In this document: one piece after another, positions 27,001 through 30,000 of the stretch
Numbering within the stretch: position 1 is the stretch's first letter
Layout of the letters: each line of letters starts with the position of its first letter
Source: a virus
Lineage: Duplodnaviria; Heunggongvirae; Uroviricota; Caudoviricetes
DNA length: 35,710 nt
Direction: 5' to 3' (one strand)
IMG/VR virus record: IMGVR_UViG_2718217715_000001
Program-made: the position numbers

Positions 27001-30000
27001 ACGGACTGTTACACGCTGTTCCGGGATGCCTACCATCTGGCGGGAATTGATATGCCGGATTTTGAGCGTGAGGATGACTGGTGGCGCAATGGTCAGAACC
27101 TGTACCTGGACAATATGGAGGCGACTGGTTTTTACAGGATTTCCCTGCCTTCCGCACAGCCTGGCGATATCCTGCTGTGCTGCTTTGGCGCATCGGTGGC
27201 CAATCATGCCGCCATATACTGCGGCAACGGTGAACTGCTTCACCATCTGCCTGAACAACTGAGTAAACGGGAGAGGTATTCCGAAAAATGGCAACGACGA
27301 ACGCATTCAGCCTGGCGTCACCGCCACTGGCACGTATCTGCCTTCACGGGGATTTACAACGATTTGGCCGCCGCCTCAGCCTGTATGTGAACACGGCAGC
27401 GGAAGCCATCCGTGCCCTGTCGATGCAGATGCCGGGATTCCGCCGTCAGATGAACGAAGGCTGGTACCAGATACGTATTGCCGGTGATGACACGGCACCG
27501 GAGGCGGTGTACGCCCGTCTTCACGAACAGCTGGGTGAGGGAACGGTCATCCACATTGTGCCGCGACTGGCCGGGGCCGGAAAGGGTGGACTGCAGATTG
27601 TGCTGGGGGCGGCAGCCATCGTGGGCTCTTTCTTCACGGCCGGGGCATCAATGGCGTTATGGGGTTCAGCCCTGGCAGCCGGTGGTTTTTCTGCCACCAC
27701 GATGCTGTTTTCACTGGGGGCCAGCATGATACTGGGCGGTGTGGCCCAGATGCTGGCACCGAAGGCAAAAACACCGGATTACCGCGCAACGGATAACGGT
27801 AAACAGAACACGTATTTTTCGTCACTGGATAACATGATTGCCCAGGGGAACCCGATGCCGGTGCCTTATGGTGAAATGCTGGTTGGTTCACGACGGATAT
27901 CCCAGGACATCAGCACCCGTGATGAGGGCGGAGACGGGAAAGTGGTGGTTATCGGGCGGGGATGAAAATAAAAAAATCCCGCAGAGTTAGCGGAGCTGCG
28001 GGAGAGAACGATGAAGATTAACGTTATGGAGTTATTTTTCAGGCATCAAAAAAGTAATGCAGCGTCATTATTGCGGCTACAGGCAATTGCCGGAAATGTG
28101 AAGAGTTTCAGAAATTTTATTCCGTCATGACACAGGCACCCTTCGGGGTGCCTGTTGTTTTCTGGCATAAACAGATTCAGACATCAGACAGGAGAGGGGG
28201 ACAGAGTGGGTAAAGGGGGCGGCAAGGGGCACACGCCGGTAGAGGCAAAGGACAATCTTAAGTCCACGCAGATGATGAGCGTGATTGACGCCATTGGTGA
28301 AGGGCCGATTGAAGGTCCGGTGAAGGGGCTGCAGAGTATTCTGGTGAACAAAACCCCGCTGACGGACACGGACGGTAATCCCGTGATACACGGTGTGACT
28401 GCGGTCTGGCGTGCCGGGGAGCAGGAGCAGACACCACCGGAAGGCTTTGAGTCCTCCGGAGCTGAAACCGCACTGGGCGTGGAAGTGACGAAGGCAAAGC
28501 CGGTGACGCGCACCATTACGTCCGCGAACATTGACCGCCTGCGGGTCACCTTCGGGGTGCAGTCACTGTTGGAGACCACCTCAAAGGGCGACCGTAATCA
28601 CTCTTCTGTCCGACTGCTGATTCAGTTGCAGCGTAACGGTAACTGGGTGACGGAAAAGGATGTCACCATTAACGGCAAGACCACCTCGCAGTTCCTGGCG
28701 TCGGTGATTCTGGATAATCTGCCGCCCCGGCCCTTTAACATCCGGATGGTCAGGGAGACGGCGGACAGCACCACGGACCAGCTGCAGAACAGAACGCTGT
28801 GGTCGTCATACACCGAAATCATCGATGTGAAACAGTGCTACCCGAACACGGCCATTGTGGGGCTGCAGGTGGATGCGGAGCAGTTTGGCGGTCAGCAGAT
28901 GACGGTGAACTACCATATCCGCGGTCGCATCATCCAGGTACCGTCAAACTATGACCCGGAAAAACGCACGTACAGCGGCATCTGGGACGGCAGCCTGAAA
29001 CCGGCATACAGCAACAACCCTGCCTGGTGCCTGTGGGACATGCTGACCCACCCGCGCTACGGAATGGGAAAACGCCTGGGGGCGGCGGATGTGGACAAGT
29101 GGGCGCTGTATGCCATTGCGCAGTACTGCGACCAGACGGTCCCGGATGGTTTCGGGGGCACAGAGCCGCGGATGACTTTCAATGCGTACCTGTCACAACA
29201 GCGTAAGGCGTGGGACGTTCTCAGTGATTTCTGCTCGGCGATGCGCTGTATGCCGGTATGGAACGGGCAGACGCTGACGTTTGTGCAGGACCGTCCGTCA
29301 GATGTGGTGTGGCCCTACACCAGCAGTGATGTGGTGGTGGATGATAACGGCGTGGGGTTTCGCTACAGCTTCAGCGCCCTGAAGGACCGCCACACGGCGG
29401 TGGAGGTGAATTACACCGACCCGCAGAACGGCTGGCAGACCTCCACGGAACTGGTGGAAGACCCGGAAGCCATACTGCGCTACGGACGCAACCTGCTGAA
29501 GATGGATGCGTTCGGCTGTACCAGTCGCGGTCAGGCCCACCGTGCCGGGCTGTGGGTGATAAAGACCGGACTGCTGGAAACGCAGACGGTGGATTTCACG
29601 CTCGGGTCACAGGGGCTGCGTCACACACCCGGTGACATTATTGAAATCTGTGATAACGACTATGCCGGGACCATGACCGGCGGACGTATCCTGTCCATCG
29701 ATGCCGCCAGCCGCACCCTGACACTGGACCGTGAGGTGACCCTGCCGGAGACCGGTGCCGCCACGGTGAACCTGATTAACGGCAGCGGTAAGCCGGTGAG
29801 CGTGGCCATCACTGCACACCCCGCGCCGGACCGGATACAGGTCAGCACCCTGCCGGATGGCGTGGAGACATACGGTGTGTGGGGGCTCTCCCCGCCGTCA
29901 CTGCGTCGTCGCCTGTTCCGCTGTGTCTCCGTCCGGGAAAACACGGACGGCACCTTTGCCATCACGGCAGTGCAGCACGTACCGGAAAAAGAAGCCATCG

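Follow-up and report, generated by a model that had tools for sequence, protein, structure and literature searches.

The spacer between tail genes I and J in the Caudoviricetes virus record IMGVR_UViG_2718217715_000001 (35,710 nt; hereafter "the window", meaning the whole stretch of DNA that was analyzed) very probably carries an autonomous, moron-like cargo unit, namely an sRNA gene that points against the late tail operon. We are confident that this sRNA is the RNA published as EcOnc22, EcOnc23 and EcOnc24 in E. coli O157:H7 Sakai. By its sequence, the window insert holds an already described Hfq-binding RNA, EcOnc22, which is a relative of PasB of EPEC.

The insert between tail genes I and J

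Gene I of the window ends at 27965 and J starts with a GTG at 28206, leaving a spacer of 240 bp (27966-28205) that includes the J ribosome-binding site (AGGAGAGGGG, 28190-28199). The GC content of the spacer is 0.44 versus 0.59 in both I and J, which bears out the AT-rich insert that an earlier note on this DNA had described between the two genes. That note had taken I and J to be adjacent in lambda; they are separated there by a short gap of 60 nt, against 240 nt in the window. Insertion of DNA of differing base composition between genes that are neighbors in relatives is characteristic of morons.

The comparative search that had been proposed for this insert recovered it from 781 of 5426 complete E. 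coli genomes (median, 3 copies), from 147 phage records and from at least 120 IMG/VR contigs. The insert is no chance feature. A bacterial collection with one genome per species yielded only two tiny stray contigs and thus no sign of spread outside E. coli and its phages. All copies examined, including 72 of the 79 junctions that were gathered by means of the J protein alone, agreed in their antisense orientation and exact position. Other phages carry a sodC gene on the opposite strand at the same I-J junction. A search of Rfam gave no match to the spacer at gathering thresholds, and a permissive search gave chance-level matches only (E of at least 0.39).

An sRNA gene on the minus strand

The features of the insert are listed in Table 1. 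The left hairpin pairs 27977-27984 with 27996-28003 (8 bp, of which the outermost pair is not conserved), and the invariant A7 that precedes it on the plus strand is a U7 tract on the minus strand (27976-27970). A terminator scan called this hairpin on the minus strand only, and the 47-nt stretch 27966-28012 folded at -14.0 kcal/mol (z = -3.6 versus shuffles). Among the variants, the stem was conserved and the loop was variable, with the compensatory pairs CCCACAG/CUGUGGG and CCCGUUAAUA/UAUUGCGGG. The northern probe for PasB (AATCCCGCAGTGATCGCGGAGCT) covers this element. The asymmetry of G-U wobbles, as a sign of which strand is under selection, was uninformative without the outermost pairs. 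The hairpin had previously been read as a 7-bp structure that sequesters a ribosome-binding site with its 3' arm. The overlap with the GGAG at 28001-28004 is real, but the stem has 8 bp and the structure is the minus-strand terminator of the sRNA, with stem and U7 on that strand only; it also provides the insert with a terminator of its own, as in morons.

Table 1. Coordinates of features in the I-J spacer of the window
Feature	Position	Strand	Description
sRNA gene	27970..28060	-	EcOnc22/23/24 sequence; diverged PasB homologue; 3' end at U7
sRNA intrinsic terminator	27970..28003	-	Stem UCCCGCAG/CUGCGGGA, 11-nt loop, U7
Hfq UV-crosslinking (CRAC) peak of EcOnc22	27987..28047	-	Published; mapped onto the window
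Unpaired core, probable seed	28011..28039	-	AAAAAUAACUCCAUAACGUUAAUCUUCAU
Predicted sRNA 5' end	28060	-	G (+1), from promoter geometry
Predicted sigma-70 promoter	28067..28095	-	-10 AATAAT (28072-28067), 17-nt spacer, weak -35 TTCCGG (28095-28090)
Invariant block	28094..28130	-	Just upstream of the -35; tail-sense AAATGTGAAGAGTTTCAGAAATTTTATTCCGTCATGA
39-codon ORF	28011..28130	+	Present in the window copy; not a conserved coding feature
Intrinsic-terminator-like hairpin	28132..28163	+	ACAGGCACCC-UUCG-GGGUGCCUGU, then UGUUUUCU; 43 nt upstream of the J start

The sRNA runs antisense to the tail genes for about 90 nt (from about 28060 to 27970; fold z = -4.1), and 5 nt separate the end of its terminator from the gene I stop codon. 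The 5' part differs between subtypes, and 49 distinct sRNA variants were counted in this study. Just upstream of the 3' stem-loop and poly-U lies a conserved single-stranded stretch, the combination found in the PasB family. This core bears the motif AACUCC...UUAAUCUUCAU (28039-28011); its columns were near-invariant in alignment A3 and unpaired in the consensus fold, and this open stretch probably serves as the seed for base pairing. For PasB, a preprint (Zhu et al. 2026) also proposed a seed just upstream of the terminator. A variable 5' part, an open conserved stretch and a terminator with a U tail are the usual layout of an Hfq-binding sRNA.

Predicted promoter and invariant upstream block

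Morons have their own promoter. On the minus strand of the insert, a candidate sigma-70 promoter was predicted (Table 1). The window copy falls below the threshold of the promoter scan, whereas the aligned promoters of two relatives, TTCACA-16-TATAAT in E2348/69 and TTTGCA-16-TATAAT in Stx2_14744, score 11/12 and 10/12, respectively. These minus-strand sites were the only promoter-like sites in the E2348/69 and Stx2_14744 spacers, and they lie at the right distance from the sRNA. No tail-sense promoter was found within the insert in three variants (the window and the two diverged copies). In a lysogen, host RNA polymerase would start at this promoter near 28060, run leftwards for about 90 nt and stop at the hairpin and U7 (28003-27970), just before the gene I stop codon.

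The block upstream of the -35 was kept throughout the BLAST-derived set A1, the most diverged copies included; its invariance in alignment A3 was partly forced by the search pattern. The block may serve as an UP element or as a binding site for a regulator. It holds CRP-like half-sites (TGTGA-N6-TCAGA), and their center lies about 44.5 bp before the predicted start. Control of the sRNA promoter by CRP is a lead only, the half-site center being 3 bp off class II geometry.

The sRNA corresponds to EcOnc22, EcOnc23 and EcOnc24

EcOnc22, EcOnc23 and EcOnc24 derive from Hfq-CRAC in E. coli O157:H7 Sakai (Tree et al. 2014, Mol Cell). A published RNase E-CLASH fragment, GCCTGAAAAATAACTCCATAACGTTAATCTTCA, is identical to the minus strand of the window from 28044 to 28012 and occurs only once in the window. 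Table S2 of Tree et al. (2014) places the EcOnc22 peak at 2902714-2902774 (+), and we anchored this peak by the exact CLASH sequence (old coordinate 2902717 = window 28044), which gave the position in Table 1. The coordinates of that study are 135 nt lower than those of the current Sakai record. Used unadjusted, they would put the Hfq peak opposite the right hairpin, in its mirror image; AgvB1, STnc100 and the CLASH sequence exposed the offset.

The EcOnc22, EcOnc23 and EcOnc24 peaks lie in the I-J spacers of the lambdoid Sakai prophages Sp15, Sp14 and Sp11, respectively, and in all three cases on the strand opposite the tail genes. The three Sakai spacers are mutually identical and differ from the window only at 28143 (T in the window, C in Sakai), outside the sRNA; sRNA sequence, junction and strand are thus alike, whereas the published tables give neither the I-J context nor a promoter. 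EcOnc22 was detected in uninduced cultures (Tree et al. 2014). It gave a northern band of about 85 nt and was destabilized in an hfq deletion (Tree et al. 2014, Table S2), results that belong to an RNA of identical sequence and not to this prophage; as the Sakai copies are identical, the published northern and crosslinking signals are not assignable to one prophage.

Relationship to PasB

PasB is an 83-nt RNA (Pearl Mizrahi et al. 2021, Sci Adv, Table S6) of prophage PP6 in EPEC E2348/69, with Hfq-dependent stability and 37 listed RIL-seq interactions. It maps to 1466343-1466261 on the minus strand, between I (E2348C_1436, end 1466255) and J (E2348C_1437, start 1466496). In nhmmer, PasB aligned to the minus strand of the window from 28053 to 27971 (E = 8.8e-9). 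With blastn-short, only the terminator part matched (33 nt, 91% identity), and Megablast with a word size of 28 gave no match between PasB and the window. The longest word common to the two is 15 nt, so the published census with a word size of 28 would miss the window variant.

PasB resembles the window sRNA in its place at the I-J junction, its antisense orientation, its end 6 nt past the I stop codon and its dependence on Hfq, and it shares the terminator stem with U7 and a core of the form AACUCC...AUCUUCAU. The two differ in the body by a 6-nt indel and a different 5' stem, in the putative seed by several substitutions (CCAUAACGUU against CCUUCACAUU) and in the -10 (AATAAT in the window, TATAAT in PasB). 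Judged by these alignments, the window sRNA and EcOnc22-24 belong to the same family as PasB. Neither Pearl Mizrahi et al. (2021) nor Zhu, Shabalina and Storz (2026) connects PasB with EcOnc22-24, and the comparison joins two literatures, one on EHEC and one on EPEC, that make no mention of each other in the texts consulted. The published PasB census reported "only a few nucleotide differences"; the 49 variants counted here indicate a family that is more diverse and more often multicopy than in that census. In the uninduced EPEC lysogen, pasB had a baseMean of about 480-1080, and the neighboring genes I and J had about 5 and 15.

Targets and mode of action

We infer that the sRNA acts in trans, pairing with host and accessory mRNAs and so regulating them. 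CLASH chimeras join the core to yjbJ, with AACGUUAUGG complementary to CCAUAACGUU; the partners obtained so far are chimeric reads only, with 1-2 CLASH hybrid reads per row in the rows seen. A 2021 review listed the targets of EcOnc22 as unknown. Stx-converting phages and prophages related to them carry the sRNA, so its targets may matter for the control of virulence. A target in common with HnrS (the hha ribosome-binding site, through AAUCUUC) was ruled out (z of -4.2 for HnrS, 0.1 for EcOnc22 and -1.6 for PasB).

The sRNA could also, or mainly, act in cis, either by pairing with the late mRNA, to whose I-J junction it is fully complementary, and directing RNase III cleavage or by being titrated by the late transcript on induction. 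Such a role would agree with the orientation and position kept in every copy examined, the 72 of 79 J-collected junctions among them, and with the end of the sRNA 5 nt from the I stop codon. We nevertheless consider it improbable: the complementarity is limited to the non-coding spacer, a position can persist simply by descent, and the antisense sodC at the same junction shows that the orientation may merely reflect tolerance of the late operon for antisense inserts. Moreover, RIL-seq and CLASH show partners in trans.

A broader reading starts from the antisense sRNA, the invariant block and the tail-sense terminator, which were kept together over dozens of variants while the sRNA body diverged. 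The three might form a two-strand module that works as a life-cycle switch. In the lysogen, the terminator and the block would keep the unit insulated and the sRNA expressed. On induction, late transcription modified by Q would pass through the unit and collide with the sRNA promoter, and the late transcript, a perfect antisense to the sRNA, would remove it or would itself be cleaved at the I-J junction, setting the level of J. In a milder version, PasB and EcOnc22-24 would be one large, fast-diverging family with a seed that varies between prophages, and co-resident prophages would then give one host several target specificities. We regard this reading, in either version, as speculative and unlikely, and favor an sRNA unit with targets in trans.

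The tail-sense hairpin upstream of J

The right hairpin pairs 28132-28141 with 28146-28155 (10 bp) around a UUCG loop, followed by TGTTTTCT. The 51-nt stretch 28120-28170 folded at -26 kcal/mol (z = -5.2), and the scan called a plus-strand hairpin here both for the window and for two diverged copies. In 63 distinct sequences, the stem was 96.7% paired, and a C-G pair was replaced by U-A in 19 of the 63. Its T-run is on the tail-sense side only. This hairpin is distinct from the sRNA unit and is a conserved terminator in the tail-sense direction. The description of a 9-bp-stem UUCG terminator thus stands as regards a conserved terminator-like hairpin, but the stem has 10 bp and the UUCG loop hinges on the T at 28143, which is a C in the three Sakai copies, identical in all else; the loop thus comes from a SNP private to the window copy. 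The right terminator and the invariant block are not accounted for by the sRNA model alone.

The earlier note had also suggested that this hairpin lowers J expression. A strong, covarying sense-strand intrinsic terminator between I and J is indeed what an attenuator that reduces J relative to the upstream tail genes would need. Junctions of the PPompW699 type carry a different hairpin and T-run at the same place, and in lambda itself the I-J gap contains a GC hairpin with a U-rich run after it. The picture was mixed, however, for a hairpin before J as a trait of all lambdoid phages: the scan does not call the lambda hairpin, and the sodC-type junctions have no such terminator beside J. In lambdoid phages, the polymerase on the late operon is modified by Q and passes through intrinsic terminators. 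Most likely, then, the right hairpin would stop polymerase without Q modification, and Q-modified late transcription would read through it, which makes attenuation of J quite unlikely; the window has a Q/PR'-proximal sRNA cluster upstream. In addition, folding found no alternative antiterminator structure, and J reads in uninduced EPEC were not below I reads, both being near background.

The 39-codon reading frame

The window copy does contain the 39-codon ORF that had been reported on the tail-sense strand, with the GGAG 6 nt ahead of the ATG at 28011 and a terminator downstream, and in one phage record the same strand carries an annotated 32-aa hypothetical protein. A tail-sense gene with its ribosome-binding site hidden in the upstream hairpin and with the UUCG terminator at its end is nonetheless very improbable. 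Only 48 of 83 variants have ATG at the aligned start triplet (24 have ACG, 10 have ACA and 1 has AAA), and indels of lengths not divisible by three make the frames from 28011 stop after 5-56 codons; in E2348/69-type copies, the frame is 22 aa long. Start and frame are therefore not conserved among homologues as they would be for a small protein. The peptides of both strands had no match in Pfam or PHROGs, and the spacer lacks a tail-sense promoter. The coordinate prefixes searched for the three Sakai spacers were absent from the Sakai ribosome-profiling supplement, which is weak evidence, as repeated prophage DNA maps poorly. The stretch GGAG ... ATG AAG ATT AAC, which includes the conserved first codons of the ORF, is the reverse complement of the conserved sRNA motif AACUCC...UUAAUCUUCAU. 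The comparison of variants thus largely refutes a 39-aa gene.

A type I toxin-antitoxin pair, in which a small peptide toxin from one strand is opposed by an antisense RNA that overlaps its gene, would fit the two outward-facing terminators that flank overlapping small ORFs on both strands, but is very improbable, since the start is kept in only 48 (tail-sense) and 32 (opposite strand) of 83 variants, neither peptide is hydrophobic or matched to a family, and a promoter is present on one strand only; a conserved small hydrophobic ORF opposed by an antisense RNA was not found.

Of the original choice between a small cargo gene and an sRNA, the moron-like sRNA cargo has held, whereas its anatomy has not, the sRNA being on the opposite strand, and neither has the 39-codon gene. 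All the features that had been listed are present where they were placed, although most had been assigned to the wrong strand. The annotation trap so corrected is that the sense-strand ribosome-binding site, ORF and terminator, convincing as they look, mirror an sRNA gene on the antisense strand. In hundreds of pathogenic E. coli genomes, genome pipelines leave the I-J spacer blank.

Comparison with other prophage cargo

Lambdoid morons (Juhala et al. 2000), such as lom and bor in lambda and prophage sodC, are extra DNA of lower GC content between close late genes. Like them, the window insert has its own terminator; its promoter is a predicted one, strong in relatives but weak in the window copy, and published data show expression in the lysogen for pasB. 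Unlike them, it carries a non-coding RNA rather than a protein gene and points against the late operon. The sRNA also resembles AgvB, AsxR and HnrS, which are short, Hfq-associated, multicopy cargo of EHEC prophages with a terminator and a U tail, but these are unrelated to it in sequence and are encoded in PR'-proximal or other late regions rather than between I and J. One of them, AgvB, is present in the window itself, at 7884-7945.

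The I-J spacer encodes a known Hfq-binding sRNA

The element between tail genes I and J is a prophage sRNA whose Hfq binding has been published before, and which the earlier note read on the wrong strand. The spacer has a GC content of 0.44, compared with 0.59 in I and 0.59 in J, and every feature listed in that note (hairpin, GGAG, ATG, ORF, UUCG hairpin and J ribosome-binding site) exists in its sequence. Folding compared with shuffled sequence gave z = -3.6 for the left-hairpin stretch and z = -5.2 for the right-hairpin stretch. On the plus strand the left hairpin has A7 directly 5' and no T-run 3'; the minus strand therefore reads a stem plus U7, and a terminator scan called this hairpin on the minus strand only.

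Features of the I-J spacer, its counterparts and the PR'-proximal cluster (window positions unless a copy or locus is named)
Feature	Position	Strand	Details
Gene I end	27965
I-J spacer	27966-28205		240 bp
Left hairpin	27977-28003
GGAG	6 nt 5' of ATG at 28011	+	overlaps 3' arm of left hairpin
39-codon ORF	28011 to 28130	+
Right hairpin	28132-28155	+	10 bp, UUCG loop, then TGTTTTCT
J ribosome-binding site	in spacer
J start codon	28206		GTG
sRNA promoter, E2348/69 copy		-	TTCACA-16-TATAAT, 11/12
sRNA promoter, Stx2_14744 copy		-	TTTGCA-16-TATAAT, 10/12
sodC in place of sRNA module	L152 ~340-870; also L162, L166, L177, L181, L182	- (L152)
Lambda hairpin	L140 866-895; NC_001416 ~15465-15494		AACCGCC-TGCG-GGCGGTT, then TTGTCATTT; just upstream of J ribosome-binding site
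STnc100	7691-7883	+
AgvB, anti-GcvB sRNA	7884-7945	-
Three tRNA genes	in PR'-proximal cluster

PasB of EPEC E2348/69 is an 83-nt RNA encoded on the minus strand (1466343-1466261) between E2348C_1436 and E2348C_1437 (Pearl Mizrahi et al. 2021 Table S6), which the genome record gives as tail assembly protein I and J; its terminator begins 6 nt past the I stop. The northern probe for PasB in the same table, AATCCCGCAGTGATCGCGGAGCT, is the left hairpin of our alignment consensus, and in an nhmmer alignment PasB matched minus-strand window positions 28053-27971 (E = 8.8e-9). Hfq-dependent stability and 37 RIL-seq interactions were reported for PasB. Those data also give a baseMean of ~480-1080 for pasB versus ~5 for I and ~15 for J; reads so far above those of both tail genes indicate that pasB is transcribed independently in the lysogen.

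EcOnc22 (Sp15), EcOnc23 (Sp14) and EcOnc24 (Sp11) of E. coli O157 Sakai were described as Hfq-crosslinked RNAs, EcOnc22 giving a band of ~85 nt and being destabilised in an hfq deletion (Tree et al. 2014 Table S2). The positions of AgvB1 and STnc100 revealed a coordinate offset of ~130-140 nt between the current and the older Sakai record. In the current record, each of the three EcOnc peaks lies within an I-J spacer, antisense to the tail genes. The RNase E-CLASH supplement of Waters et al. prints GCCTGAAAAATAACTCCATAACGTTAATCTTCA as the fragment of both EcOnc22 and EcOnc23 and a shortened form of it for EcOnc24; this sequence was found once in the window (minus strand, 28044-28012). The match fixed the offset at 135 nt, which places the EcOnc22 Hfq peak at window 28047-27987. 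The three Sakai spacers are mutually identical. The window sRNA is EcOnc22, base for base, because the sole difference between these spacers and the window is position 28143 in the right-hairpin loop (T in the window, C in the Sakai copies; loop UCCG to UUCG).

The coordinates of Tree 2014 Table S2 and Waters 2017 CLASH lie 135 nt below NC_002695.2 at 2.9 Mb and ~135-140 nt below it at 1.94 Mb. When left unshifted they misplace sRNAs; EcOnc06, for example, would fall on the strand opposite AgvB2 rather than on STnc100.

The census of Zhu et al. 2026 took the 83-nt E2348/69 sequence as its query, with a word size of 28, and reported few nucleotide differences in PasB, typically with a single variant per genome. 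PasB and the window copy share no word longer than 15 nt, and a megablast run with that word size of 28 gave no match between the two; O157-type copies would thus go uncounted in that census. We found 49 distinct sRNA variants. In the available text of the PasB papers and the EcOnc papers, we found no mention of the other family's name; the link between the two is a minor addition rather than a discovery.

Conserved structure, promoter and predicted pairing region

Across the spacer variants, the left stem is retained while its loop varies freely, with compensatory variants CCCACAG/CTGTGGG and CCCGTTAATA/TATTGCGGG. The stem on the right is retained too: 19 distinct sequences have T-A in place of C-G. 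Taken together, 94.7% of cells are paired, versus 23-54% when partners were shifted by one to three columns. Most variants carry a near-consensus sigma-70 promoter on the minus strand, correctly spaced from the sRNA, and the scan found no promoter-like site on the tail-sense (plus) strand of the E2348/69 and Stx2_14744 spacers. The window copy, with a -10 of AATAAT and a weak -35, lies under the threshold of the scan. Just upstream of the sRNA -35 is an invariant block (28094-28130), unchanged among BLAST-derived copies, the most diverged included, although its invariance in the larger set was partly forced by the search pattern used. The block is AT-rich at the position expected of an UP element. 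It also holds CRP-like half-sites centred ~44.5 bp from the predicted start, a distance that does not fit class II CRP control of the promoter.

Counted from the predicted start at 28060 through the U7 tract, the RNA measures 91 nt (fold z = -4.1). The terminator is the sole helix common to 25 distinct sRNA variants, the 5' part differing by subtype, and the stretch AAYUCC...UUAAUCUUC (28039-28011) is nearly invariant and unpaired in the consensus fold. By analogy, this predicted layout is the one usual for an Hfq-dependent base-pairing sRNA, and the position of the open stretch agrees with the PasB seed proposed by Zhu et al. A 2021 review gives the EcOnc22 targets as unknown. The CLASH chimera partner is yjbJ (ECs5028), in which AACGUUAUGG is complementary to CCAUAACGUU of the sRNA, with one or two reads per row among the rows listed. 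We infer that the sRNA regulates in trans.

The right hairpin is a tail-sense terminator

The earlier note described a strong UUCG terminator that might close a cargo gene or lower J expression. The hairpin and T-run were borne out: the T-run is invariant and on the tail-sense side only, the stem covaries, and the scan called the hairpin on the plus strand in three diverged copies. The UUCG loop itself is a C-to-T change private to the window copy. In the same three copies no promoter was found on the tail-sense strand of the insert, which argues against the hairpin as the end of a sense-strand cargo gene. In lambdoid phages, transcription of the tail genes starts at PR' and is carried out by Q-modified polymerase, for which intrinsic terminators are no barrier, so that the hairpin is unlikely to attenuate J in lytic growth; a PR'-proximal AgvB/STnc100 cluster is present upstream of the tail genes in the window. 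The tail-sense terminator is genuine and probably not a J attenuator. It may plausibly stop unmodified polymerase in the lysogen or stabilise the upstream mRNA. Comparison with lambda, PPompW699-type and sodC-bearing junctions gave mixed results on such a hairpin before J.

Protein-coding readings of the spacer

Coding potential was compared in 83 distinct spacer variants. The triplet aligned to the ATG at 28011 was ATG in 48, ACG in 24, ACA in 10 and AAA in 1, and the first stop lay 5 to 56 codons downstream, because the spacer indels are not multiples of three. Neither Pfam nor PHROGs gave a match for the peptide of either strand, and the Sakai ribosome-profiling supplement contained no searched coordinate prefix of the three Sakai spacer copies, a weak negative. 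The 39-codon ORF is thus not maintained as a gene. The proposed ribosome-binding-site mask also falls away: the left hairpin is the sRNA terminator stem, and the GGAG and ATG AAG ATT AAC looked meaningful because they are the reverse complement of the open conserved sRNA stretch (28039-28011). Both are by-products of reading the wrong strand. The broad proposal of cargo, possibly an sRNA, held; its detailed anatomy did not. A 40-codon protein gene on the opposite strand was rejected, its start being retained in 32/83 variants.

Distribution of the spacer

As the earlier note had proposed, the insert was sought in other tail modules, and it is widespread: 781 of 5426 complete E. coli genomes (median of three copies per positive genome, identity 73 to 100%), 147 phage records, mostly Stx-converting phages, and at least 120 IMG/VR contigs. 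Standard annotation leaves the spacer blank, except for a 32-aa hypothetical protein in one phage record. In a one-genome-per-species collection, the sole matches to a 29-nt invariant-block pattern were collected loci L137 (Asaia platycodi, 546-bp contig) and L138 (Parendozoicomonas haliclonae, 460-bp contig); these tiny contigs from unrelated taxa most likely reflect contamination by E. coli phage DNA.

Some spacer copies are broken up by insertion sequences. At L047 497-727, an IS end (TGAACCGCCCCGGGAATCC...) that resembles those of the IS3 family replaces the sRNA promoter and body. In Stx2a_WGPS2 (L009, ~1753 onward), an IS66-family transposase follows the right terminator at the expected J start.

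The I-J junction as a cargo site

Junctions were also gathered by J protein alone, with any spacer content. The 79 usable junctions, whose J proteins are all at least 97% identical to that of the window, represent one lineage, not lambdoid phages in general. The sRNA module was present in 72 (55 canonical, 4 minor variants and 13 of the PPompW699 type), and six carried an opposite-strand Cu,Zn superoxide dismutase gene (PF00080, E = 4e-32). At the L152 sodC junction, the terminator scan called no tail-sense terminator beside J. Such sequence comparisons support a view of the insert as a putative moron in a site tolerant of antisense cargo.

PPompW699-type junctions have a different hairpin and T-run. 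In phage PPompW_699 (L007 1640-1840) and 13 IMG/VR loci (e.g. L159, L171), the spacer is a mosaic with the sRNA module retained: the invariant block is cut after TTTTTAT and followed by GGATTATCGGTGGGCATGA, apparently the 3' end of another I gene, then by a hairpin (AAAACCCCGGTATC-TGCT-GATACCGGGGTT TCTCTTT) and ~100 extra bases before J. In the 60-nt I-J gap of lambda, a GC hairpin and U-rich run are visible in the sequence (gap fold -21 kcal/mol, z = -2.8); the consensus terminator scan did not call this hairpin.

Other features of the window

The cluster at window 7330-7578 and 7691-7945 is of the kind usually seen in EHEC lambdoid prophages at the PR'-proximal cargo site. Window 13039-13130 matches the flank of HnrS (EcOnc11) in Sakai Sp10 at 92% identity, the HnrS sequence being absent from the window. 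An ALIL pseudoknot, an IS3-family transposase frameshift element, was found at 1474-1590 (121.5 bits), indicating an insertion sequence near the left end of the window.
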